A stretch of 64,000 bases of DNA from Escherichia coli (GCF_050920415.1 NZ_CP169309.1); one strand, 5' to 3'. Positions 6,770 to 64,000 are shown, numbered from the stretch's first letter. The notes: generated by a model not told the origin, from the letters alone. Numbers and translations: made by a program.

Positions 6770-7597
6770 TTAGAGAACGCTGAATAAATTCAACTCACTC
6801 ACTTTCGAGTAAGTCTTGAGGGTAGCTTCCATTGCCACTTCCAGTCCGGTAAAGGTGATCGACGCAGGGCCGTAATCGAGATCCTGCAATGAACCAATCA
6901 ACTCATCATTAGAGGTAGAGATATCGGTCTGCGCATCGCTCAGCATCGACATGGTGTTTTGTGTCTCGCCGAGCGACGCAATCGAGGCGTTGAGGTCGTC
7001 CGAGGCGGTGTCCACCACATTAACGGCGTTTTGAATATCGCTTTGTACCTGCGGATCTGCCGGGTCAACGTTAGGGTCTTGCAACTCCTGAGAGAGCGAA
7101 TTGAGCGTGTTGAGCACATCTAAATTACTTCCGAAGAAATCGCTCACCGCCACGTTGGTATCCACTTCAACGCCGTTCGACACCGTCGTCTGGCGATGGT
7201 CGCTGTTACCCTGATAGCTGTAGCTATCGGTCACGCCATCACCGTCATCGTCCAACGCCACAATCGGCGGCTGATCGTTGATGGTGCCGCCAAAGACGTA
7301 ATGCCCGTCTTCATCCTGATAGTTGAGCGCCGCCAGCAGGCTGTTGTTGACGCCATCGAGAATCGACTCCTGCTGGCTTAACCCCGCCGACGCAGAGTCA
7401 ATATTGCTTTGATACTGCTCAATCGCCGACTGCTGGCGGTTCAACTGAGTGATGCGTGTGGCGGCGATAGGATCATCCGATGGCTGCAAAATTTCCTTGC
7501 CGGTTGCCATCTGCTCGACCACGTGCGCCAGTTCGCCAGAAAGATTATTAAAACTTTGCGTCATCGAGACGTAGGTTTGTTGAGTGGTTACTCGCAT
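6770..7597 (-). CDS. lfgL: Hook-filament junction protein FlgL-like (HAP3)
   Basis: Start chosen at the internal ATG (MRVTTQQTYVSM…), which has a GGGAG Shine-Dalgarno upstream and a 14-nt gap after flgK; flagellin-like terminal helices. The ORF track start at 7621 is the alternative. Confidence 0.8.
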   Translation of the reverse strand: MRVTTQQTYVSMTQSFNNLSGELAHVVEQMATGKEILQPSDDPIAATRITQLNRQQSAIEQYQSNIDSASAGLSQQESILDGVNNSLLAALNYQDEDGHYVFGGTINDQPPIVALDDDGDGVTDSYSYQGNSDHRQTTVSNGVEVDTNVAVSDFFGSNLDVLNTLNSLSQELQDPNVDPADPQVQSDIQNAVNVVDTASDDLNASIASLGETQNTMSMLSDAQTDISTSNDELIGSLQDLDYGPASITFTGLEVAMEATLKTYSKVSELNLFSVL

Positions 7598-42589: not shown

Positions 42590-42729
42590 GGTCGGATGCA
42601 GCGTGAACGCATTATTCGGCCTACGGTTCGGGTACAGATTTGTAGGCATGATAAGACGCGTCAGCGTCGCATCAGGCATCAGCGCACAAGTGCCGGATGC
42701 GGCGTAAACGCCTTATCCAGCCTACGCCA
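42590..42729. repeat. BIME with three REP palindromes
   Basis: gtcggatgcagcgtgaacgcattattcggcctac … gtaggcatgataagacgcgtcagcgtcgcatcaggca … gccggatgcggcgtaaacgccttatccagcctac. Confidence 0.75.
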
Positions 42730-46511: not shown

Positions 46512-46664
46512 GTTATTAACCTCCTAAAGCCTGGCGACAACACGATAATTTGCAAATCAGATATTTCCAATATCAGCATTTGTTATCAATTTATTCTGCG
46601 CTAAGGCAACTGCCTGATAAGGTGTTAAAGTTATAAAACCCTTCGCATAAAGGAGTTGTACACC

Positions 46665-47435
46665 GTGCCTGGTTTGAAGATTACGCTTTTGCAGCAACCA
46701 CTGGTGTGGATGGATGGTCTTGCCAACCTGCGCCATTTTGATCGTCAACTGGAAGGTATTACCGGGCGCGATGTGATCGTTCTACCGGAGATGTTTACCA
46801 GCGGCTTTGCCATGGAAGCGGCAGCTTCGTCGCTAGCACAAGATGACGTAGTGAACTGGATGACAGCTAAAGCGCAGCAGTGCAATGCGCTGATTGCAGG
46901 CAGTGTTGCATTACAAACGGAGTCTGGTTCGGTTAACCGCTTTTTGCTGGTTGAGCCGGGCGGCACGGTACATTTTTATGATAAGCGTCATCTGTTCCGA
47001 ATGGCAGATGAGCATCTGCATTATAAAGCGGGCAATGCGCGAGTGATTGTGGAATGGCGCGGCTGGCGTATTTTGCCGCTGGTGTGCTACGACCTGCGTT
47101 TTCCGGTGTGGTCGCGCAATCTCAACGATTATGACCTCGCCATCTACGTCGCCAACTGGCCTGCCCCACGCTCTCTGCACTGGCAGGCATTGCTGACAGC
47201 CCGCGCGATTGAGAATCAGGCGTATGTGGCGGGATGCAATCGCGTCGGCAGCGATGGCAACGGCTGCCATTATCGCGGTGACAGCCGGGTGATTAATCCA
47301 CAGGGCGAGATTATCGCTACTGCCGACGCGCATCAGGCAACGCGCATTGATGCGGAGCTGTCGATGGCGGTGTTAAGGGAATATCGCGAAAAGTTTCCGG
47401 CATGGCGGGATGCGGATGAGTTTAGGTTGTGGTGA
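46665..47435 (+). CDS. yafV: Nitrilase-superfamily omega-amidase YafV
   Basis: GTG start 9 nt after an AGGAG Shine-Dalgarno (256 aa); C-N hydrolase motifs (…VLPEMF…, …RKRHLF…, …VCYDLRFP…). Confidence 0.85.
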
Positions 47436-47464
47436 GTGGGGGTTGTGTTTAGGGCCGGGGAGAG

Positions 47465-47700
47465 TTGGGGTATGACTACGAAAGCCCGCTCTCCTGCGAC
47501 CACTTTTATCATAGGAGTGTGGAAGTGCTTTTCCATCAATCGCGATGACGTCTTTGTCATCTGAAGAATGACATTCACGCATCCGGTTAATAAAGCATTC
47601 GTGAAATTATACTGAACGGATACAAGACATAACTCTAATTATGGTGCCGTGAACAGGATTACCATTTTCAAAATTACGATATTATTTGCAGTAATTATGT
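47465..47700 (-). mobile_element. Degenerate ISAs1-family (H-repeat) transposase remnant abutting the yafV 3' end
   Basis: About 80% nucleotide similarity by eye to 49396-49620; minus-strand translation …[26 protein letters not shown]… matches the transposase fragment at 49323-49781. Confidence 0.5.
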
Positions 47701-47706
47701 TATTAA

Positions 47707-48219
47707 TCATTGTGATATTTCCATCTCTGTGATTAATACCGGATACGCATTTAATTGCAGAGTTTGCACGAAATTATCGCAGATAACTGGCAATAACAAT
47801 AACCCATCAGCCCGCTGCTGTAATACCTCCATTCGTTCTACTGATTCAACATTAACAACCAAACCAAGGGCATTTAGCGATTTAAGGATCTCCAGATGTT
47901 CACTCATCCAGCGCAGAGAAAAAGGATCATCACCAATTATAAAAACAGGCCCCCAGCCGGTTAATAACTGGCGTTTCATTACGGAACCAGGATGAAGTCG
48001 AGTACATATTACAGGAAATACCCCCTGTTGCGATGGTTCCGATGATGTGGATAATTCAGAAATATTTTCCATTGTTAGTGAAGAATTAACATCCATTAAT
48101 AATGGTGAAACAACCTCACTTTCCTTGCTAGTAATGGCTGCACTAATCTGAGAGGAAAATAACAATATTATTACGTATAAACTCATTTTTAACATAACAA
48201 ATTCAATCCGTTTATTCAT
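47707..48219 (-). CDS. Hypothetical secreted/membrane protein, AT-rich
   Basis: 170-aa ORF with N-terminal hydrophobic signal-like segment (MSLYVIILLFSSQISAA); no assignable motif. Confidence 0.45.
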   Translation of the reverse strand: MNKRIEFVMLKMSLYVIILLFSSQISAAITSKESEVVSPLLMDVNSSLTMENISELSTSSEPSQQGVFPVICTRLHPGSVMKRQLLTGWGPVFIIGDDPFSLRWMSEHLEILKSLNALGLVVNVESVERMEVLQQRADGLLLLPVICDNFVQTLQLNAYPVLITEMEISQ

Positions 48220-48285
48220 GTTATAGAATAATGATGCTATAAATCATCATTAATGTTCAATTATTTAATCACACAGTTTAAAAAA

Positions 48286-48789
48286 TCATTGACCAATGTG
48301 AATTGGCAATGTACCACTCAAGTTAAAATCACTGAATATTTTATCAATTTCTCTTGCAGTTTCTATATATTTAACCTCTTTCGTACTTGCATTATAAATA
48401 GCCCAAGCCTCGGGATGGGATGTTCCACCAAACCTTACAAAAAAACTTGATTTCATATTATTATATAAATTAACATCAGGAAAAGGATCTTCTCCAAAAT
48501 TAGTAGTATTGAATAATGAAAGTTCGTATCGCTTAGAAAATTCTATTGGTAGGATAGCTTCACTGCCATCAATAGCATTCATCCAGAGTTTGTTACCATT
48601 ATATTCCAACAATAATCTCTGTTTTGCATGTGTTTTATCTCGTTCTTTAACGACAGCGAATACCTTTTTAACAACCTGCTGTGCGGATGGTCCTATTGTA
48701 TTACCAAAAGATGGCAACCCGATTTTGCCATAAACACTCTCCTGAATGAAATAAATATCCGTTTTATCGGCCTCGACAATATCTACCAT
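48286..48789 (-). CDS. Hypothetical cytoplasmic protein, AT-rich
   Basis: 167-aa ORF; no signal peptide; no assignable motif. Confidence 0.45.
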   Translation of the reverse strand: MVDIVEADKTDIYFIQESVYGKIGLPSFGNTIGPSAQQVVKKVFAVVKERDKTHAKQRLLLEYNGNKLWMNAIDGSEAILPIEFSKRYELSLFNTTNFGEDPFPDVNLYNNMKSSFFVRFGGTSHPEAWAIYNASTKEVKYIETAREIDKIFSDFNLSGTLPIHIGQ

Positions 48790-49101
48790 TTATCCCTCCA
48801 AACAAGACCTGACTCCAGGACAAGAGCATAGTGTGTAGTAAACACATCATGCTCTTGCCCTGACCATTGAAATAACAACTTTCGTTTGTTTACTGTACGC
48901 TGTCTAAATAGCTGCGTGGAATAAAGTTGCACTTTTTATCATCCCTTGTAGAGCAAGATTACGAAAGCCCGCCCCCGCAAGGGCTGACGCGAGGTAGTCT
49001 CTGTCCGCAGCTGCTTTTCACATCTTACATCTTGCCCCTGCCTTGAGTATCTTATCTTTCGTTAAAATATTAATAGCGATCTTCCGTATCCCTGAAAATA
49101 A

Positions 49102-49781
49102 TTATGCTGCATTTCCTCTTCTTATTTTGAAGTCGTCTTTATTCATTACCACTTCCAGATGCCAGTGCAATTTATTCTCCACTTGCCAGTGATTTCGGTT
49201 CGCTGTGGCGAACTTCTCTGCGGTTAAATCAGCAGAAATGCTATAATATCTGACCGTCATTTCGGGATTTTTCTTTTGTTCTGCTATTATTGAGCGAAAT
49301 GAGACTGCCATGCATAATTTCTTCAGCCCTTTCCATTCAAACGTAAAATCAATAAATTCATCAGAGACATGCAAACAATATGAAGACGGATTTTAATGAC
49401 ATAAGTTGCTCCCTTGTGACGAGTTTTATCATAAGAGTGCCGGAGCGTTTTTCCATCAATTGCAATGACGTCTTTATCATCTGAAGAATGACATTCACGC
49501 ATCCGGTTAATAAAGCATTCGTGAAATTTTGCAGGACTGATACATGATACAACTCTGGCAATAGTATCGTGAACAGGAATACCATTTTCAAAATCACCAT
49601 ATTGCTTCAAAAAATCGAGATGAGTTTCCCCGAAATCCTCTATATCTTCCCAGCCTTCTGCACCCGAAATAACGGCGCAAATAGTCAACAGTAGAATATC
49701 CGATAATTTATGCTCCACTTTCCAGGCTTGTCTGTAATCGGGGATAATAGAAATATGTTCCATCAATTTTTTAAGTTCCAT
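49102..49781 (-). pseudogene. ISAs1-family (H-repeat-associated) transposase, internally deleted/frameshifted
   Basis: N-terminal 152 aa ([51 protein letters not shown]…) and a separate 90-aa C-terminal piece (…[30 protein letters not shown]) lie in different frames; the catalytic middle is missing. Confidence 0.7.
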
Positions 49782-49904
49782 TTTGTTCTCCTTAATTATG
49801 TAAGGAGTATTTGATCATGTATAAGCAATAAAAAACAGCTTCAGGTAATGAGGAATATCTCAATTTTTAAACATAAAATGCGAATTATTTAGTACAAAAA
49901 AGCA

Positions 49905-51796
49905 GCGTTAAGTGAGTAGGCCACCGGAACCTCCCCGACAGCCTCTCGCAGAACCGTACGTGAAACTCTCGCTTCATACGGCTCCCGTCAGGCAAACGCG
50001 CTTCCTGGTCCTGCTTTCCAGTGGGCAAACAACTCCGGCTTCTCTTTTGACAGCCTTTCCATTAGCTGACACGCCTTCGTCTTTCTATACCGCAGGGTTT
50101 TATATTTCTTTCTCGCCCACGCAATCAGCGTCAGATTAATATATCTGCATACTTTCTTCATCGCTGATTTGTGGTATCTCGCGTAATAATTCAGCCACCC
50201 CGATATTATCGGATTCAGCCACTTCGCAATATCTTCGAGACTCATCTCCACCCTGCGTCTGATCCACAGTTTCCTGAGTTTTCCAATCATGCCTTTCTGC
50301 GCACGGTTACTCGCCGCCGGGCTGAAACTCGTAAAGAGGTTTCCCCGCCGGTGGTTACGTGCTCTTCGCGCTCTGAACGTATACCCCAGAAAATCAAACT
50401 GCACTGTTTCATGGTTCGCCTGTCGTTCGCTGTCTTTGCAGTAAACTACTTTCGTTTTCTCCGGATGTAATTCCAGTCCACATTCCTGAAAACGTTTTGC
50501 CAGCTTATTCAGTAATTCCTCTGCCTGTTGTTTACTGCCACAATGAATTAATCCATCATCTGCATAACGGCACAGGGAATTTCCGGATAATGTAACGTCA
50601 GCCATTTATCAAACACATAGTGCAGAAATAAATTCGCCAGTACCGGGCTGATGACTCCACCCTGTGGCGTACCTTTATTTCTTTCCTTCAGTGTTCCATC
50701 CGGCATCTGCACCGGCGCTGTCAGCCACCGGCGAATAGACAGTCTTACCCATTTATCCGCACAATGTTTATCTACTGCCCTGAGTAATAAATCGTGGGAG
50801 ATATTATCGAATAACCCTTTAATATCAAACTCAAGACACCAGTCGTATTGCCAGCAACGTTTTCTGGTGACTGCTATTGCATCCAGCGCTGATTTTCCAT
50901 GCCGGTATCCGTATGAATCATTCAGGAAATAACGCTCCACTAATGGTTCAAACGTTACCAGCACCGTCATCTGCGCTATTCGATCGCTTACTGTCGGTAT
51001 TCCTAAAAGTCTTTTGCTGCCATCCTTCTTCGGAATTTCCACCGCACGCACTGGCGGCGGCATCCAGCTTCCCGACGATAACCTGTTCCAGATTTTGTAC
51101 AGATTTCCTTTCAGATCCCGCTCAAAATCTTTCAGCGTCTGGTTATCCACTCCGGCAGCTCCGGCATTCGCCTTTATCCGCCGGTACGCTTCCACCACAT
51201 GCAATTTACTGACCTGAAACGGTTTTGTCTGTTCACACACAGCCTCCTCCTGCCTACAGTTGGGCTGTGATGCAGACTGCCCGACGCTGTCCCTTCGCTC
51301 CACGTTCATTACAAACGCTTCCTCACTACTACGAACAGCTCTGCCCCGGTTTCGCACATCGATACTCTCATACTCATAATTTCGGTTATTTGTATTTCTC
51401 TCTTGAAATTGCGACGACCGGTTCCCGTAGTTCCTGCAAAGAGCCTGATACAGCGTCATGCCTGCTATACACCGGACACCATTCACGCAGCATTCGGAAT
51501 TCACCCGTAAATTAATCCCGGCGGTATCACGAAACCTCCGGTTTTGATGTCACTTAGGACTAACGACGTTTCAACACAGGTTCGGGTTTACTCATCTCAC
51601 TGTATCTCACATAGGATCAGATCTCGTCTGATCGTTCCCCCTGCGCTCACTACCATGGCTCTTTACCACAGCAGCCGGGGTTGTTTGGGACCGACTTCCG
51701 ACAGCAGATCCCGGTGGGCCTGCCACCATCTCTTCACAAGCTTATGCTTATTACATGCAAAACGTCCCGTTTTGCATCTTTGTGCCTACGGCACAC
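49905..51796 (-). mobile_element. Bacterial group II intron (about 1.9 kb)
   Basis: 5' end GTGTG on the minus strand (complement of cacac at 51792-51796); RT/maturase ORF; domain V-like hairpin gagccgtatgaagcgagagtttcacgtacggttc (complement of 49951-49984) just after the ORF stop. 3' boundary is approximate. Confidence 0.65.
49988..51309 (-). pseudogene. Group II intron reverse transcriptase/maturase, frameshifted
   Basis: RT motifs (…GIPTVSDRIAQ…, …TPQGGVISPVLANLFLHYVFD…) in ORF 50548-51504; YADD and maturase domain X (…GWLNYYARY…) in ORF 49988-50605. The two parts are in different frames. Confidence 0.7.
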
Positions 51797-51843
51797 GATG
51801 ATCTTTCCCTGATTACTTGACCTTTCCCTGGGAGTACAGAGTG

Positions 51844-51893
51844 AAGTTTCCGGCATGGCGGGATGCGGATGGGTTTGAACTGGGGTGATTAGG
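51844..51893 (+). repeat. Duplicate of the yafV 3' terminus (direct repeat of 47381-47432)
   Basis: aagtttccggcatggcgggatgcggatg identical in both copies (28 bp), with decaying similarity over the next ~20 bp; second copy would encode …[14 protein letters not shown]. Confidence 0.7.
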
Positions 51894-51942
51894 CACTACA
51901 TGTCTACATTTTCCCGGTCTCCAACCCCTCAATCTTATAAAC

Positions 51943-54042
51943 TTAACCTCGGCTCACCGTTTTCGATTCCATCCAATAAATGACCCGGTTGGATGTGGGC
52001 TGATCGCCAACAACTTTGCCATCTGCAGAGATTAGCTTCAGCTCTTTATTAGCCTCATCACCGAAGTAAATCATGCGGTAGCGAAAATAACCGCCCCAGG
52101 GTTCGCGTCCACCCAGCGAACTTTGCATAAACCAGGCGCGGGAGTCGTGAACCTGGTCATCATAGAGAGCCAGTAATTCAGCGCAGGGCTGAGTTCGCGT
52201 TCGCGTTCCCGTTCCCAGTGAATCAATAAAAAATTGTGGATAGAGTCCGTTTCCCATAGCCTTAATTTGTTGATATTCCTTTGCTTCATCATCGCCATTA
52301 ATCAGATACACCGGATATTTAGGAATGACATCCACAAGAATCTGAATGGCTTTCTCCGTGACGCTGCCGTTAATATCGCGCGTCCATCCTTTATAATCGC
52401 TCTGAAATTCTCGGGCTGCCTCTCGCAATTGGTACTGAGCGTTCGTCGGGTCAAGGATAGGTATGCCCTGATTACTTTCATCAAGTGTGCCATTGCCTTT
52501 CTGCGTGTTCGCCCGCTCTTTTTCGATATTTTCCATTTGTTCTTCGCGCGCTTGGGCCTCTTTATCAAGTCCATCTTTATCCAGCTGTGGCGCCTTAATA
52601 TAAAAAGGTTGCACAAGAAGGCTGTTGTTCGCATAGCGACCGATACGCCAGGCGGTGATCCAGCCGATCTGATCGCTAATTGCGCTTTCAAGAACCTGGG
52701 CAAGTTGATAGGGGTGATAACCTTCCCTCGTATCAATCATTTCTTCTGTACCCTGCAAGGTGGTGTTCAGCAGCGTTTGTCGCCAGATGTTGAAGCGTTT
52801 TGTTAATGAATTAGCAATCGTAAATTCCTTTACGCTAGAAGGACTCATAATTCGCAGAGGCGACACACCTTTTATTAATGGAGTAACAAATTTAGAATAA
52901 ACAGCAAGTGGTGCTCCTGAATCAAATGCAGCAAGATACATATCATGCAGGGCTATCTGAGAAAGAATTTCGCCTGAGTCACCACAGGACTTCCCCTGAT
53001 CGCGAACGGGATAGCCACCACCGACATCAGAGTGCATCCCCGGATAGATAACTTCCTCTGCATATAAAGGATAATTGCCTTCAGGACGACGGATTGAATC
53101 CAGCGGAAAGCACAACCGCTGTTCATGCGCAGCGACGAAGTGGCGGCAGCATTTAATCAGGCCGGGAAACTGCGTCTCATCAGGGAGTTGCTGAGTACTA
53201 TCGGCCCATCCCATATGACCGGCTGCGCCCGGTAAAACATGCGCCGCCCCCACAGAAGCTACGGTATCCAGCAGCCCCAAAAACTCAATACTGACAGCTA
53301 AACCGGCCAGCATCACCTGTTGCCTCTGCGGGCAAGCTAACTGAGTCAACCAGTTAACAAAAGTTCGTGCTTCCGCTGCGCCACGGGAAAATCCGTAGAT
53401 AAACAGCCTTACGTTTAGCAGGCGCGGACTAGCTTGTTCTAACTGTCCCTGTAATTTTTCCAGGTAGGGGTTAATCACATTGCGACGATTCACTTCACCA
53501 GTCATCGGCCAAGGAGCACGCATAAGAGGAATGTGCTCTTTTGCCACCTTCTCATTCAGTCCATTTTGGGTTGGGTCAATAGCATAGCTAAGGGCATCCA
53601 CGAGACGTAATAATGCCCAATTAATTCGGTCTTCACCACCGGTGGCAAATTCCAGTCCGCTGTTGCTGTAATCCATTTCACCTATCTTGGGAAATGGTGT
53701 GCCTACACCAGGTATGTAATAGGAAAAATACCCAGCATTACGGTCTTTAATACTTGCGTGGAATAATTTCGCAATATTGGTTGGATGAGAGGCTTTTGTG
53801 TCATTATATTCATTATTATTTGTACCATCAAAAAACAGACTAATATGCAGACTTTGACTACATGTAAAGCCAATTCTAAATCCAGCCTGTTTACTACAGT
53901 TGGTTTTGTGCTCCTCTGTTTTATTGATTTGTTTCAGGTAGTTCGCGTTTACCTGCGCTTCAGATAATATTAATCGCCCATCTTCAGGGAACACCGGGGG
54001 GGCATAACACGGAAAAGCCAGACCACTTATTTCGCTGGACAT
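51943..54042 (-). CDS. tle1: Type VI secretion phospholipase effector, Tle1-family (DUF2235 alpha/beta hydrolase)
   Basis: Start at internal Met (MSSEISGL…), 699 aa; N-terminal …LFFDGTNNN… motif and GxSxG nucleophile elbow (IYGFSRGAAEA) characteristic of Tle1/DUF2235. Confidence 0.75.
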   Translation of the reverse strand: MSSEISGLAFPCYAPPVFPEDGRLILSEAQVNANYLKQINKTEEHKTNCSKQAGFRIGFTCSQSLHISLFFDGTNNNEYNDTKASHPTNIAKLFHASIKDRNAGYFSYYIPGVGTPFPKIGEMDYSNSGLEFATGGEDRINWALLRLVDALSYAIDPTQNGLNEKVAKEHIPLMRAPWPMTGEVNRRNVINPYLEKLQGQLEQASPRLLNVRLFIYGFSRGAAEARTFVNWLTQLACPQRQQVMLAGLAVSIEFLGLLDTVASVGAAHVLPGAAGHMGWADSTQQLPDETQFPGLIKCCRHFVAAHEQRLCFPLDSIRRPEGNYPLYAEEVIYPGMHSDVGGGYPVRDQGKSCGDSGEILSQIALHDMYLAAFDSGAPLAVYSKFVTPLIKGVSPLRIMSPSSVKEFTIANSLTKRFNIWRQTLLNTTLQGTEEMIDTREGYHPYQLAQVLESAISDQIGWITAWRIGRYANNSLLVQPFYIKAPQLDKDGLDKEAQAREEQMENIEKERANTQKGNGTLDESNQGIPILDPTNAQYQLREAAREFQSDYKGWTRDINGSVTEKAIQILVDVIPKYPVYLINGDDEAKEYQQIKAMGNGLYPQFFIDSLGTGTRTRTQPCAELLALYDDQVHDSRAWFMQSSLGGREPWGGYFRYRMIYFGDEANKELKLISADGKVVGDQPTSNRVIYWMESKTVSRG

Positions 54043-54584
54043 GTTGCAGGTTCCTTCATCTCGCGGGGTTCTTTGATAGGATAATTTGGTGTACCATATT
54101 TCTGGCAGACGGTTGTCACTTTTATCTGATTGCACGATAGAAAATGAACGGTCAGGCCACAAAGCTCAGCATCGTATTCCGGGATATCAACAATTACTTT
54201 ATATTTTTGATAATTTGCAGCATGTTTAGCATACGCATCTTCTTCATAGCCAAAACCTTCTTTTTTCATTGCAATAGGTTCAAGGGGGTTCGGGTCTACT
54301 TCCCACTCAATCCGGGCCTTTAATCCCACACGCCACTTATCTGGCAGCATAACGCAACAATATCCTCCACCGTCCCCGAATGGAGAAATATTTGGCCCAC
54401 CGTAACCATTGATGTGTAAATAATTTATAGCCTTATCCGTATGATTTATCCCATTAATATCCACAGCAGTGTAATCTCTGCTATTTTTTGCCATTGAACA
54501 GCCTGATACTGCAAATAAAATCATTAGAGAATAACATTTGAAAATCGCTCTCATACTGATACTTTTCCTTATTTCGCTGGACAT
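54027..54584 (-). CDS. Lipoprotein, putative Tle1 immunity protein (Tli-like), tandem copy 3
   Basis: 185 aa; lipobox (…LFAVSGCSMA…); paralogous to the two upstream copies, with a divergent central segment. Confidence 0.7.
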   Translation of the reverse strand: MSSEIRKSISMRAIFKCYSLMILFAVSGCSMAKNSRDYTAVDINGINHTDKAINYLHINGYGGPNISPFGDGGGYCCVMLPDKWRVGLKARIEWEVDPNPLEPIAMKKEGFGYEEDAYAKHAANYQKYKVIVDIPEYDAELCGLTVHFLSCNQIKVTTVCQKYGTPNYPIKEPREMKEPATCPAK

Positions 54585-55123
54585 GTTGCAGGTTCCTTCA
54601 TCTCACGGGGTTCTTTGATGGGATAATTCGGTGTGCCATAACCCTCGCAGACGGTTGTCACTTTTATCTGATCGCATGGCAGAAAATGTACGGTCAGGCC
54701 ACAACGTTCAGCGCCGTATTCCGGGATATCAACAATTGTTGAATATTTTCTAAAACTGTTTAGCGCAACTTTCTTCCATGCTTCAAATTTCTCCCTGTCC
54801 ACATAACCTGGAGGCAGAGGAGCTGTATTTGGATCAACCTCCCACTCAACCCGGGCTTTTAATCCAGAATGCCACTTATCTGGCAACATAACACAACAAT
54901 ATCCTCCACCGTCCCCGAATGGAGCAATATTTGGACCACCGTAACCATTGATGTGTAAATAATTTATAGCCTTATTCGTATGATTTATCCCGTTAATATC
55001 TCCAGCAGTGTAATCACCGCTATTTCTCGCCATTGAACAGCCTGATACTGCAAATAAAATCATTAGAGAATAACATTTGAAAATCGCTCTCATACTTATA
55101 CTTTTCCTTATTTTGATGGACAT
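54569..55123 (-). CDS. Lipoprotein, putative Tle1 immunity protein (Tli-like), tandem copy 2
   Basis: 184 aa; lipobox; near-identical N- and C-terminal thirds to copies 1 and 3. Confidence 0.7.
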   Translation of the reverse strand: MSIKIRKSISMRAIFKCYSLMILFAVSGCSMARNSGDYTAGDINGINHTNKAINYLHINGYGGPNIAPFGDGGGYCCVMLPDKWHSGLKARVEWEVDPNTAPLPPGYVDREKFEAWKKVALNSFRKYSTIVDIPEYGAERCGLTVHFLPCDQIKVTTVCEGYGTPNYPIKEPREMKEPATCPAK

Positions 55124-55662
55124 GTTGCTGGTTCCTTCATCTCGCGGGGTTCTTTGATGGGATAATTTGGTGTACCATATTTCTGGCAGACGGTTGTCAC
55201 TTTAATCTGATTACACGTTAGAAAATGAATCGTCAGGCCACAAAGCTCAGCATCATATTCCGGGATATCAACAATTGTTGAATATTTTCTAAAACTGTTT
55301 AGCGCAACTTTCTTCCATGCTTCAAATTTCTCCCTGTCCTTATTGCCTGGAGGCAGAGGAGCTGTATTTGGATCAACCTCCCACTCGACCCGGGCTTTTA
55401 ATCCAGAATGCCACTTATCTGGCAGCATAACGCAACAATATCCTCCACCGTCCCCGAATGGACCAATATTTGGTCCGCCGTAACCATTGATGTGTATATA
55501 ATTTATAGCCTTATCCGTATGATTTATCCCGTTAATATCCACAGCAGTGTAATCACCGCTATTTTTCGCCATTGAACAGCCTGATACAACAAATAAAACA
55601 ATTAGAGAATAACATTTGAAAATCGCTCTCATACTTATACTTTTCCTTATTTTTCTGGACAT
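55108..55662 (-). CDS. Lipoprotein, putative Tle1 immunity protein (Tli-like), tandem copy 1
   Basis: 184 aa; lipobox (…LFVVSGCSMA…); 16-nt overlaps link the three copies head-to-tail. Confidence 0.7.
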   Translation of the reverse strand: MSRKIRKSISMRAIFKCYSLIVLFVVSGCSMAKNSGDYTAVDINGINHTDKAINYIHINGYGGPNIGPFGDGGGYCCVMLPDKWHSGLKARVEWEVDPNTAPLPPGNKDREKFEAWKKVALNSFRKYSTIVDIPEYDAELCGLTIHFLTCNQIKVTTVCQKYGTPNYPIKEPREMKEPATCPSK

Positions 55663-55975
55663 GTTGCAGGTTCTTTTACTTTGAGAGATTTTAATTGATG
55701 GGTGTTATTTCTACGACAACAAAGTTTTGACAAAGAAGCAAATAAAATGCATATCTTTTGATTGTCACACATTGGAATATCGACAGAGCATTGATGATAT
55801 TACGCAAAATATATTGCAGCCAAGTGAACTGACATTACGATCGAACACAAATGCAACATGATGGATACTACCATTACATGTCGAGCTTGATTTTCCGCTT
55901 ATTTTACGATTATCTCTTGATATTAACAGCTACGGACTTTTAAACAGATAAATCTCCCCGTACATCACTACAATA

Positions 55976-56740
55976 TTATCCTTCGAAGTCCCGCAAAGCT
56001 CCAAAATATTTCGCGTCATTGGCCCTGAAAGCAATATCAAGACAGTGGGCAAAATAGCTTTCCTGACTGAGTTCACTGACTGCTTTTTCCTTCATCAGGG
56101 CTTCAGCGTCGCAGATACAGCCCATCAATCCCACCTGTACATCATCCACCCGATTCATCTCCGGGTTGTCAGTAAGCCTGCGTTCTGGTGAAAAACTTCC
56201 TGATTTCCAGTTAATCTCTCCATCACGGTCTAACCAGCTCCAGAACAACGCAATATCAGTAAATGTCGCCTGCTGCTCGTTGGTCAAAACATGTGTGAAC
56301 AGCAAAGGGAACACCCGATTATCATAGTAACGCAGCAATCCGGTCTGTTCTTCCCACTGAACCTGTGACAATACCTGAAGATGCCGCCCCAGCAGGTCGA
56401 ATGTAAGAGGGGATATCAACAAAGTAAGACGCGGCGTATCAGCAAATGACGCCATCAGTTGCGCCAGAAATTTGCGATGACTACTGAGCGCAAAGTACAG
56501 GCGTAACACTACAGGGGAATACTCCATCGTCTCAGCTTCAGGCGTTCCTTCAAACAGGGCATACCAGTGAATGGCTGGCGACAGATGAAGCATATCATTT
56601 TGCAAAGGTTGGTCTGTTCCAGCCTGGTCAACAAGCACATCTATGTAATCCAAACCAGCGGCAGAACAGAATGATTCAGTCTGCTTCAGCCAGATAATAT
56701 ATTTGTCTTGATCGGTAGCGTGTGGCGATACTGTTATCAT
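55976..56740 (-). CDS. DUF4123-like type VI effector adaptor/chaperone, putative
   Basis: 254 aa, directly downstream of vgrG; …LLRYYDNRVFPLLF… resembles the DUF4123 (R/Y)FYDPRV signature as I recall it. Confidence 0.5.
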   Translation of the reverse strand: MITVSPHATDQDKYIIWLKQTESFCSAAGLDYIDVLVDQAGTDQPLQNDMLHLSPAIHWYALFEGTPEAETMEYSPVVLRLYFALSSHRKFLAQLMASFADTPRLTLLISPLTFDLLGRHLQVLSQVQWEEQTGLLRYYDNRVFPLLFTHVLTNEQQATFTDIALFWSWLDRDGEINWKSGSFSPERRLTDNPEMNRVDDVQVGLMGCICDAEALMKEKAVSELSQESYFAHCLDIAFRANDAKYFGALRDFEG

Positions 56741-56752
56741 TGTCTTTCTCCC

Positions 56753-57447
56753 TTATCCACGAGGCGCAAAAGCGGCGGCGGCTTCCTGCGCCCTTTTCAG
56801 GCACTCCTTACACACCGATTTTTCTGGTGCTTCCTCATCCTCATCGTTGTTATCATTCTGATCGGACGACGCATTACTGTCATTTTGCTCAGCCGCTAAA
56901 CTTTTATCATCTGCCAGCGCTTTCAAAACCGCCGGTTGTAGCGTCGGCACCGGCGTTCCCGGACTACCGCCGCTATTGAGATTGATTTTCGGCCCGACGA
57001 TGTCCACGCCCCCTGAATGGATGACCACAAACGAACCACCCACCTTCAGGGTGATTTTACCGCCACTCTCCAGTACGATTTCATCCCGGACCTTCATTCC
57101 CAGCGCACCGGTAATCTTCCTCGCCAGGTCGCCCTTCACCTCCAGACTGTGCTTTCCCTCCACCAGACTGATATGGTTCCCCGTCGTCTTATGCTCCTGC
57201 TTCCCTTCCACCGTCACTTTACGGTCGTTTCTGACATACAGGCCGTCATCGTGACTCACGCTCACCGTCCGGTCATTCGTCACCTTCAGCGTCTGGTCAT
57301 TACGTACCGTTATGCGCCGGTCGTTCGCCACCGTGATACTCTGGTCGTGGCCCCCTTCTTTTCTGGTGCCGACCTCAACCGTCTGCCCCTTCACCACCCT
57401 TATCTTCTGGTCGTTACCGATGGTCTCCGTATGGTCATGCTTCACGT
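56753..57447 (-). pseudogene. vgrG: vgrG, C-terminal part (gene interrupted by an IS21-family insertion)
   Basis: 230-aa frame with VgrG beta-helical repeats (…ITVANDRRITVRNDQTLKVTNDRTVSVSHDD…); in frame with the N-terminal part once the IS and one target-site duplication copy are removed. Confidence 0.8.
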
Positions 57448-57547
57448 GTCAGCGCCAATGATATAAGACAGTAATTCACCATTTGGATTGTCCGCTCCAC
57501 CCAACATGTTGTTTCCTTAAGGTTCCTACACCACAAAGGGAACACTC

Positions 57548-58718
57548 ATGCTGAGCAGAGAGGACTTTTACATGATAAAGCAAATGCGCCAGCAAGGTGC
57601 GTATATTGTTGATATTGCCACTCAGGTTGGTTGCTCTGAGCGGACTGTCAGACGGTACCTGAAATACCCGGAACCTCCGGCCAGAAAAACACGCCACAAA
57701 ATGGCCAAACTCAAGCCGTTCATGGACTATATCGACATGCGTCTGGCTGAGAATGTCTGGAACGGCGAGGTCATCCTGGCGGAAATCAAAGCGATGGGTT
57801 ATACCGGTGGCCGTTCCATGTTGCGTTACTACATCCAGCCCAAACGTAAGATGCGGCCATCGAAGAAAACGGTTCGCTTCGAAACTCAGCCCGGTTACCA
57901 GCTACAGCATGACTGGGGAGAAGTTGAGGCTGAGGTTGCCGGGCAACGATGCAGGGTTAACTTCGCGGTTAATACGCTGGGGTTCTCACGTCGCTTCCAT
58001 GTCTTCGCGGCACCAAAGCAGGATGCTGAACATACCTATGAGTCACTGGTCCGCGCCTTTCGCTACTTCGGCGGCAGCGTGAAAACCGTGCTGGTCGATA
58101 ACCAGAAAGCCGCAGTGCTGAAAAATAACAACGGGAAGGTGGTGTTCAACTCCGGGTTCCTGCTGCTGGCCAATCACTATGGCTTCCTGCCACGGGCCTG
58201 CCGTCCACGAAGGGCCAGAACCAAAGGTAAGGTGGAACGGATGGTGAAATACCTCAAGGAAAACTTCTTCGTCCGGTACCGCCGGTTCGACAGCTTCGCC
58301 CATGTTAATCAGCTACTGGAGCAGTGGATGGCTGACGTTGCCGACAGGCGGGAACTTCGCCAGTTCAGGCAGACACCGGAACAGCGCTTCACGCAGGAAC
58401 AGGTGCATCTGCAGGCGCTGCCAGGTACGGACTTCGATACCAGCTACTTCGATATCCGTCATGTCTCCTGGGATGGCTATATCGAGGTTGGCGGGAACCG
58501 TTACAGCGTGCCGGAAAGCCTGTGTGGCCAGCCGGTATCAATACGGATCTCGCTGGATGATGAACTGCGATTTACAGTAATGAGCAACAGGTAGCATCGC
58601 ACCGTCTCTGTTCGGCTGTATACGGCTGGCAGACCGTGCCGGAGCATCACGCCCCACTCTGGCAGCAGGTCAGTCAGGTGGAACACAGGCCGTTGAGTGC
58701 CTATGAGGAGCTGTTGTG

Positions 58719-58719
<1 letters not shown>
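57548..58719 (+). pseudogene. istA: IS21-family transposase istA, frameshifted near the 3' end
   Basis: 348-aa ORF ends at 58594; the expected C-terminus (…WQTVPEHHAPLWQQVSQVEHRPLSAYEELL*) continues in another frame and ends at the TGA overlapping the istB start. Confidence 0.75.
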
Positions 58720-59512
<793 letters not shown>

Positions 59513-63073: not shown

Positions 63074-64000
63074 ATGTCAGTAAAGGAAGAAATTGCTCCC
63101 GTCAGCGCGTCTCAAACCGCCGCGCCCCCATCTCTGCTTGATGAAATCATGGCGCAAACCCGCGTCCAGCCTAAATCAGAAAGCTACGATATCACCCGCC
63201 AGGGCGTGAGCGCCTTTATTGCCGCCATGTTACAGGGCGACAGTAGCGCTGAACCTATCAATATCCTGGCCGTTGACGCCATGATTGCTGATATTGATGC
63301 CCGAACCAGCAGGCAGATGGATGCCATTATTCATGCCCCGGAGTTTCAGGAACTGGAATCCCTGCTGCGCTCGCTGAAGCTGCTGGTTGAACGCGCGGAT
63401 ACACGGGAAAACATCAAAGTCCATTTCCTGAATGTCACTCAGGAAGAACTGCTGGATGATTTCGAATTTGCACCTGAAATCACGCAGTCTGCGTATTACA
63501 AGCATGTATATTCAAGCGGTTACGGACAATTTGGCGGTGAGCCAGTGGCGGCGGTAATCGGCAACTTTGCCTTTAAGAACACCACGCCGAATATGAAGTT
63601 GCTGAAATATATCAGCCAGGTCAGTGCGATGGCGCACAGCCCGTTCCTCTCATCAGTATCATCCGAATTTTTCGGTCTGGACTCATGGACAGAGCTACCA
63701 GGGATCAAAGAACCAGGAGCCATCTTTGAAGGCCCGGCCTATTCCCGCTGGCGTGCCTTGCGTGAATCTGAAGATTCACGCTACCTGGGGCTGACTGCCC
63801 CCCGGTTCCTGCTGCGTCACCCTTACTCGCCAGATGAGAACCCAGCCAGGACCTTCCGTTACCATGAAGACGTCAGCCAGAGTCACGAGTCTTATTTGTG
63901 GGGGAACACCTCGTTTTTACTAGCTGCGAACCTGGCTGAAAGTTTTGCTAAATATCGCTGGTGTCCCAATATCATTGGCCCTTCCAGCGGCGGCGCAGTC
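63074..64000 (+). CDS. tssC: Type VI secretion sheath large subunit TssC (VipB-like), 3'-truncated by window end
   Basis: ATG at 63074 after a GGA-rich Shine-Dalgarno; translation MSVKEEIAPVSASQ…AVIGNFAFKNTTPNMKLLKYISQVSAMAHSPF… is typical of TssC; the frame stays open to the window end. Confidence 0.85.
   Translation, partial: MSVKEEIAPVSASQTAAPPSLLDEIMAQTRVQPKSESYDITRQGVSAFIAAMLQGDSSAEPINILAVDAMIADIDARTSRQMDAIIHAPEFQELESLLRSLKLLVERADTRENIKVHFLNVTQEELLDDFEFAPEITQSAYYKHVYSSGYGQFGGEPVAAVIGNFAFKNTTPNMKLLKYISQVSAMAHSPFLSSVSSEFFGLDSWTELPGIKEPGAIFEGPAYSRWRALRESEDSRYLGLTAPRFLLRHPYSPDENPARTFRYHEDVSQSHESYLWGNTSFLLAANLAESFAKYRWCPNIIGPSSGGAV

Follow-up and report, generated by a model that had tools for sequence, protein, structure and literature searches.

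We describe here a stretch of 64,000 nucleotides from Escherichia coli (NZ_CP169309.1; hereafter the window) in which the gene yafV is followed by a type VI secretion system (T6SS) island and in which the 3' end of yafV occurs twice. The first end (copy 1) belongs to the intact resident gene. The second (copy 2) is most likely a relic of a foreign yafV, imported together with a T6SS toxin cassette from a Pseudocitrobacter-like donor and cut by an insertion sequence (IS) of the ISAs1 family. This origin is argued from the anatomy of the locus, a donor-type arrangement in other Enterobacteriaceae, a contrast in identity between the cassette and the genes around it, the distribution of copy 2 among E. 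coli genomes and a deletion derivative found in one of them.

Two yafV 3' ends at the island junction

The gene order in the window is fadE, ivy, yafV and then the T6SS island, whose usual locus is between yafV and the tRNA gene aspV (PMC2941450; PMC2907695). A tRNA scan of the 64-kb window found none, so aspV must lie beyond position 64,000. The region 46600-52600 is that of strain MFDS1022581 save for one base. A sequence-only reading of the window had noticed that the 3' end of yafV recurs around a perfect 28-nt core, and this was borne out by a repeat search and a shuffle test. In the repeat search, 47377-47440 aligned without gaps to 51830-51893 (78% over 64 nt, offset 4453), and copies 1 and 2, each taken as 59 nt (47377-47435 and 51830-51888), have 47 of 59 nt in common. 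The intervals first proposed, 47381-47432 and 51844-51893, fall within this same repeat but are mutually about 10 nt out of register. The core, AAGTTTCCGGCATGGCGGGATGCGGATG, lies at 47391-47418 and 51844-51871; these are its only two occurrences in the window, even with three mismatches tolerated, and none arose in 100 shuffles.

In copy 2 the frame of yafV is retained, and the stop codon (51886-51888) is in register with that of copy 1 (47433-47435). The two tails differ, copy 2 ending in ...DADGFELG-stop and the resident gene in ...DADEFRLW-stop. The 28-nt core encodes KFPAWRDAD and is identical between E. coli and Pseudocitrobacter faecalis, as are other yafV stretches of about 30 nt; judged from these alignments, the core is best read as yafV coding sequence conserved between genera and not as a recombination site.

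A donor-type yafV beside Tle1 in other Enterobacteriaceae

The tail WRDADGFELG-stop gave one match in a codon-degenerate scan of about 100,000 species, one genome each, namely P. faecalis DSM 27453. In this genome yafV is followed directly by aspV, an empty site with no island. Three further database clusters of YafV, with about 92% identity to that of P. faecalis, share this amino-acid tail, encoded by different codons, and lie on island-free contigs. A second degenerate scan, built to exclude the IS-truncated form, also gave one match, the fungus-garden metagenome contig AGFS01075944, where an intact yafV, 95% identical to that of P. faecalis and 81% to that of E. coli, precedes the spacer and Tle1 phospholipase effector gene known from the window. 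The complete genome CP003938 encodes the same YafV protein, as does an independent Logan contig, and the order fadE-ivy-yafV-Tle1 is common to all three. CP003938 is the genome of Enterobacteriaceae bacterium FGI 57, an isolate from a leaf-cutter-ant fungus garden (PMC3587947). The possibility that AGFS01075944 is a chimeric assembly joined at the core was ruled out by the same arrangement in CP003938 and the Logan contig.

In FGI 57 an intact yafV of 256 aa is followed by a 54-nt spacer and Tle1, and the locus continues with DUF3304-DUF3304-DUF4123-VgrG-Hcp-TssBC. Copy 2 matches the FGI 57 yafV tail at 56 of 59 nt, and the tail of P. faecalis DSM 27453 is nucleotide-identical to that of FGI 57. 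Copy 2 thus has what is expected of a donor relic: its sequence is contiguous with an intact gene elsewhere, it and the cassette are much more alike between the two lineages than the surrounding core genes, and it is of the donor allele type.

The yafV of P. faecalis DSM 27453 (stretch L008, 9912-10682) has a pattern of its own. Its first and last 70 nt have similarities of 0.96 and 0.90 to E. coli, and of 0.89 and 0.77 to a sister Pseudocitrobacter-like lineage; in the middle of the gene the relation is reversed. Either mosaic exchange at the locus or strong local constraint could account for this.

The probably imported cassette and its borders

The block 51830-57447 is 90.4% identical to FGI 57 overall and 93-99% identical over most of Tle1 and the DUF4123 gene. 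The flanking core genes fadE, ivy and yafV are 80-83% identical to those of FGI 57, the 5' part of vgrG and hcp 78%, and tssB/C 70%. On the left, homology between the window and FGI 57 begins at 51830, exactly at an ISAs1 terminus. On the right, strain NC101, whose vgrG is uninterrupted, drops from about 99% to about 80% identity with FGI 57 inside vgrG. The right breakpoint of the probable import lies in vgrG, and the left one is the ISAs1 terminal inverted repeat.

Two features of the cassette may be added. Three tandem DUF3304 paralogues, likely immunity genes of Tle1, stand at 54027-55662, where FGI 57 has two, and an element of the IS21 family (about 57450-59500) splits the cassette vgrG and leaves a 3' fragment at 56753-57445.

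Distribution and variant loci in E. coli

Copy 2 was searched with a 148-nt probe in 5,426 complete E. coli genomes, which form the survey for all genome counts below. No genome had matches at more than two places, these being yafV itself and the copy beside Tle1, and unrelated loci had none. The repeat is therefore not a common mobile-element end; the duplication is specific to yafV and marks the junction between core genes and the T6SS island, as the sequence-only reading had held. A Tle1-adjacent copy 2 is present in 72 genomes (70 with the full length) and varies by at most 5% among them.

The segment between the two copies has a wider distribution. Its scaffold, made up of an ISAs1 remnant (A), a gene of an integrative and conjugative element (ICE), a hypothetical gene and a second ISAs1 element (B), occurs in 541 genomes, with 758 carrying part of it. 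In AH20K059 the same scaffold and the same deleted element B are followed, to the right of the IS terminus, by a PAAR-like/DUF2169 cassette without copy 2, and this cassette adjoins a 94%-identical vgrG. We considered AH20K059 as an NC101-type locus with an IS-adjacent deletion, which is ruled out by vgrG being all that the two have in common. Because scaffold and element B are the same and the cassette is different, the two cassettes are alternatives that swap between element B and vgrG. In each E. coli locus that we opened, yafV is followed by a copy or remnant of ISAs1. LP5-1 has kept copy 2 and lost the T6SS through IS1, PapRG-04-4 has IS100 within element B, and in the K-12-like L018, TUM3755 and SCU-102 the segment is absent and the copy-1 tail present.

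The copy-2 tail sits on an intact yafV in a single genome of the survey, ChlosBP-23-1 (NZ_CP048603; stretch L024, 6288-7130), and this gene is a chimera. ChlosBP-23-1 has one yafV, E. coli-type up to the core and copy-2-type after it, which directly adjoins Tle1 in a genome without the ISAs1/ICE scaffold. We interpret it as a natural crossover of copies 1 and 2 inside the core, by which the scaffold was deleted. As its right arm has the E. coli version of copy 2 (GAA, not GAG), ChlosBP-23-1 would be a derivative and not the ancestral import.

Recombination between yafV ends thus happens, but it deletes rather than assembles. This bears on the sequence-only reading, which had the intervening segment built by recombination at the yafV terminus and the T6SS cluster placed beside core genes in that way. 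That part does not hold: the scaffold is in 541 genomes and full-length copy 2 in only 70, the identical scaffold stands beside a different effector cassette without copy 2 in AH20K059, and the cluster occupies its usual aspV-yafV locus (PMC2941450; PMC2907695). Since copy 2 is Pseudocitrobacter-type and ends exactly at an ISAs1 terminus, the junction would have been made by an IS and not by yafV-yafV recombination.

Between the two copies

The features of the junction are collected in Table 1.

Table 1. Features of the yafV-T6SS junction, with positions counted from the first nucleotide of the window
Feature	Position	Strand	Basis
Resident E. coli yafV (2-oxoglutaramate amidase), intact, tail ...DADEFRLW-stop	46665-47435	+	RefSeq annotation of identical strain MFDS1022581; ORF list
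Copy 1, last 59 nt of resident yafV	47377-47435	+	
ISAs1-family remnant A, right-end terminus joined to internal piece	47465-47687	-	Annotated partial ISAs1 transposase
Orphan PFL_4695/DUF2859 ICE gene, relic	47707-48219	-	TIGR03765 2.1e-35 (NCBIfam), PF11072 2e-28 (Pfam)
Hypothetical 167-aa gene, part of scaffold	48286-48789	-	No family match (Pfam, NCBIfam)
ISAs1 element B, pseudogene, 312-nt internal deletion (junction 49393/49394)	48960-49910	-	
Group II intron, 1,886 nt	49911-51796	-	Rfam RF00029 62.8 bits (domains V/VI), RF01999 93.1 bits (domains 1-4)
ISAs1 left terminus of 15 nt (51797-51811) and second partial left terminus of 19 nt (51812-51830)	51797-51830	-	
Copy 2, probable relic: last 58-59 nt of a Pseudocitrobacter-type yafV, in frame, stop 51886-51888	51830-51888	+	
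Rest of the probable imported block: 54-nt spacer, Tle1, three DUF3304 genes, DUF4123 adaptor, vgrG 3' fragment	51889-57447	-	
Tle1 phospholipase effector	51943-54162		

A spacer of 29 nt separates the stop codon of yafV from remnant A. With a full-length copy cut from strain TUM3755 as the ISAs1 reference, both remnants align to the element and belong to the family, and neither is intact. Remnant A keeps about 230 nt, its internal piece corresponding to reference positions 800-1000, and is about 81% identical to the TUM3755 ISAs1 and 84% identical to element B; since their mutual identity is only 84%, A and B are different elements. Element B is frameshifted and has its left terminus split by a group II intron, up to whose insertion point its body reaches; its profile matches are NF033564 (8e-36) and PF13808 (1.3e-32) for 49323-49781 and PF01609 for 49102-49374. 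That the second ISAs1 fragment is internally deleted, as proposed earlier, is confirmed by the 312 nt missing from B. An ISAs1 fragment had also been described as abutting each yafV copy. Both fragments exist, but the one at 49102-49781 does not touch copy 2: it lies about 2 kb away, separated by the IS 5' region, the 1,886-nt intron, which had gone unmentioned, and the split IS left terminus. What does abut or overlap copy 2 is the last base of the second partial ISAs1 terminus. A target-site duplication of element B was looked for, and none was found across its two flanks.

Matches among the open reading frames (ORFs) of 47436-51830 are limited to ISAs1 transposase fragments, DUF2859/PFL_4695 and reverse transcriptase (RT)/maturase domains, with one ORF unmatched; Pfam and NCBIfam scans of these ORFs found no integrase or recombinase between the copies. 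The stretch holding the DUF2859 gene and the 167-aa gene (47707-48789) is low in GC, at 34-39% in the GC profile, and is probably all that remains of an element that had integrated at aspV.

The double ISAs1 left terminus (15 and 19 nt) is also present in NC101 (stretch L005, about 6970-7018). NC101, which is without the intron, has GTGTACTCCT where the window has AGCAGCGTTA and the intron. Eight nucleotides of the 10-mer at this difference between NC101 and the window match, in inverted orientation, GGAGTACA at the start of copy 2.

Comparison with uninterrupted IS ends puts the insertion point of the intron 15 nt from the left terminus of element B. The intron has the 5' end GTGTG and domains V/VI at 49911-49986. 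Its ORF carries RVT_1 and GIIM domains and is intact, at 440 aa, in MFDS1022581; in the window a 1-nt deletion at 50574 (CACCAGG to CACAGG) breaks the RT/maturase ORF just before the YADD motif, and this frameshift could be a real mutation or a sequencing error. The full-length intron is present in 83 genomes and stands at the element B site in three. As fragments of about 200 nt from its 5' end adjoin ISAs1 termini in about 2,200 genomes, the intron appears to home to the IS terminus. A literature search on the intron in H-repeat elements returned nothing specific.

Two further observations lie outside the junction. Rfam naRNA4, a nucleoid-associated non-coding RNA of REP type, matches at 42645-42722 on the minus strand (76 bits), upstream of gmhA/lpcA. 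MFDS1022581 has, upstream of the part that corresponds to the window (stretch L001, 1-12600), a full second flagellar (Flag-2-like) cluster, fliE-I, fliM-R and flhA/B, on the yafL side of the locus.

Proposed origin and alternatives

We infer the following order of events and, for the left join, an IS mechanism. In a Pseudocitrobacter-like donor, the yafV-aspV locus would likewise have housed a type VI cluster, whose Tle1 gene lay 54 nt from an intact yafV. A fragment of donor DNA, running from inside yafV through Tle1, DUF3304 and DUF4123 into the 3' part of vgrG, would have entered an E. coli lineage and taken the place of the effector cassette there. The right join would have formed by homologous recombination within vgrG. 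Because the left join is the exact ISAs1 terminus, it would have been made by one of two IS routes: either ISAs1 transposed, in an intermediate host, to a point 58 nt ahead of the stop codon of the foreign yafV and ISAs1-ISAs1 recombination followed, or a resident IS end attacked or captured the incoming DNA directly. The foreign yafV would have lost its upstream part. The resident yafV, the old ISAs1 remnant and the ICE-relic scaffold would have stayed in place, which would explain why the two yafV ends are about 4.4 kb apart. Later, in the lineage of the window strain, a second ISAs1 end, homing of the group II intron into the IS terminus and insertion of IS21 into vgrG would have followed.

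Several points weigh against this origin. The donor label rests on 59 nt and on the contiguity seen in FGI 57, and E. coli and P. faecalis show unusual conservation over the last 130 nt of yafV, which weakens fine-scale assignment. Identity across the imported block is uneven and falls to 68-81% in the DUF3304 paralogues and in one part of Tle1, so FGI 57 would be related to the donor but distinct from it. Six of the 72 genomes with copy 2 were inspected in detail, and the expected intermediate, an ISAs1 in a foreign yafV with its upstream half present, was not found, which leaves the IS step to deduction.

Transfer in the reverse direction is unlikely. The Tle1 cassette and the copy-2 tail would then be old Escherichia sequence that was passed to Pseudocitrobacter, and copy 2 the ancestral E. 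coli end, which was displaced when the present yafV end and the ISAs1 scaffold arrived. The ends of the P. faecalis DSM 27453 yafV, nearer to E. coli than to the sister lineage over the first and last 70 nt, hint at cross-genus exchange, and most Enterobacteriaceae YafV proteins end in ...LG, so that the E. coli ...RLW would be derived. However, the tail of P. faecalis DSM 27453, nucleotide-identical to that of FGI 57, comes from a genome free of the island, and the sister lineage has the same amino-acid tail in different codons, as expected of vertical inheritance in the genus. Moreover, all E. coli yafV genes except the one chimera carry the copy-1 tail.

Site-specific integration is very improbable as the source of the two ends. 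An integrative element would insert at the 3' end of yafV and bring a substitute gene end with it, copies 1 and 2 being its attL and attR sites and the 28-nt core its crossover site, and the perfect core between diverged arms, the retained frame and stop codon of copy 2 and the ICE-family gene between the copies all fit such a model. Yet the ORFs between the copies include no integrase or recombinase, and the core is conserved coding sequence that is common to P. faecalis. The model predicts that genomes without the segment carry a hybrid end with the left arm of copy 1 and the right arm of copy 2, whereas L018, TUM3755 and SCU-102 carry the copy-1 tail; the sole hybrid, ChlosBP-23-1, has the Tle1 cassette and is best explained as a product of deletion. 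In addition, most of the 541 genomes with the segment are without copy 2, and the homology of copy 2 stops at the IS terminus and runs 5.6 kb rightward into the Tle1 cassette, as in FGI 57.

A local duplication of the resident yafV end that diverged in place, whether as an IS target duplication or as a tandem duplication, is scarcely credible: the two ends are direct repeats 4.45 kb apart with ISAs1 sequence beside each, but their 20% divergence is far above the variation within E. coli (at most 5% for copy 2 among the 72 genomes), copy 2 is closer to the yafV of FGI 57 and P. faecalis (56 of 59 nt) than to copy 1 (47 of 59), the differences are partly synonymous and leave a tail of the kind seen in other Enterobacteriaceae (...F.LG), remnants A and B, at 84%, are different elements, and the intact donor-type arrangement in FGI 57 contradicts it. 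ISAs1 target duplications are about 10 nt long, and the repeat here is 59 nt at 80%, with copy 1 standing 29 nt from remnant A, copy 2 touching the element B terminus and the flanks of element B not matching each other.

Discussion

Import from a Pseudocitrobacter-like bacterium, which we favour, would make the 59-nt relic a provenance tag for the Tle1 effector/immunity cassette, which about 1.3% of complete E. coli genomes carry, the colitis model strain NC101 among them. From the relic it would follow that in the donor, too, the cassette stood at the yafV-aspV locus, and the direction of transfer would be fixed by it. The locus also documents ISAs1 ends as breakpoints for T6SS cassette swaps, and it indicates that a conserved stretch of 28 nt suffices for a later deletion that rebuilds a chimeric gene. 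Scraps of donor core genes might systematically trace the genera that supply T6SS effector cassettes to E. coli. We are doubtful that the two yafV ends form a working recombination pair, in which crossover in the core removes the scaffold and gives YafV a foreign C-terminus, ...DADGFELG, as seen in ChlosBP-23-1; if that were true and recurrent in NC101-type populations, the pair would keep generating variation at the edge of the island. Known mechanisms are unchanged by these findings. A gene-fragment relic at an IS-bounded imported T6SS cassette is a known kind of scar, of which this is a well-resolved new example, and its value is as a clean, datable case for studies of genome evolution and of T6SS effectors. 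A literature search for yafV together with aspV and T6SS returned nothing specific.

Among the closest known systems is the exchange of vgrG-linked cassettes in T6SS islands beside aspV (E. coli T6SS-1 / LF82 PAI I; Salmonella SPI-6), which takes place at the same locus (PMC2941450, PMC2907695). As there, alternative cassettes lie downstream of a homologous vgrG (Tle1-DUF3304-DUF4123 here, PAAR-like/DUF2169 in AH20K059) and the right breakpoint falls inside vgrG. In contrast, the cassette in the window carries a 59-nt piece of what is probably the donor's flanking core gene, and it is bounded on the left by an ISAs1 terminus in place of homologous sequence. ISAs1-family elements (H-repeat / ISEc1) at Rhs and T6SS effector loci offer a second comparison, in that they too border Rhs or T6SS effector genes and leave NF033564 transposase fragments; unlike those loci, the window has two different decayed copies that frame an ICE relic, and a terminus that would be both the breakpoint of a cross-genus transfer and the home of a group II intron. 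The gene-end pseudogenes of icd/icdC at e14 and phage 21 are displaced by site-specific integration. They resemble the present case in having a second, diverged, in-frame 3' end a few kb downstream of an intact gene, with a conserved core common to both. The yafV locus differs from them in that it has no integrase and genomes without the insert lack the predicted hybrid end, and in that copy 2 is bounded by an IS terminus and is contiguous with a cassette that was probably imported.

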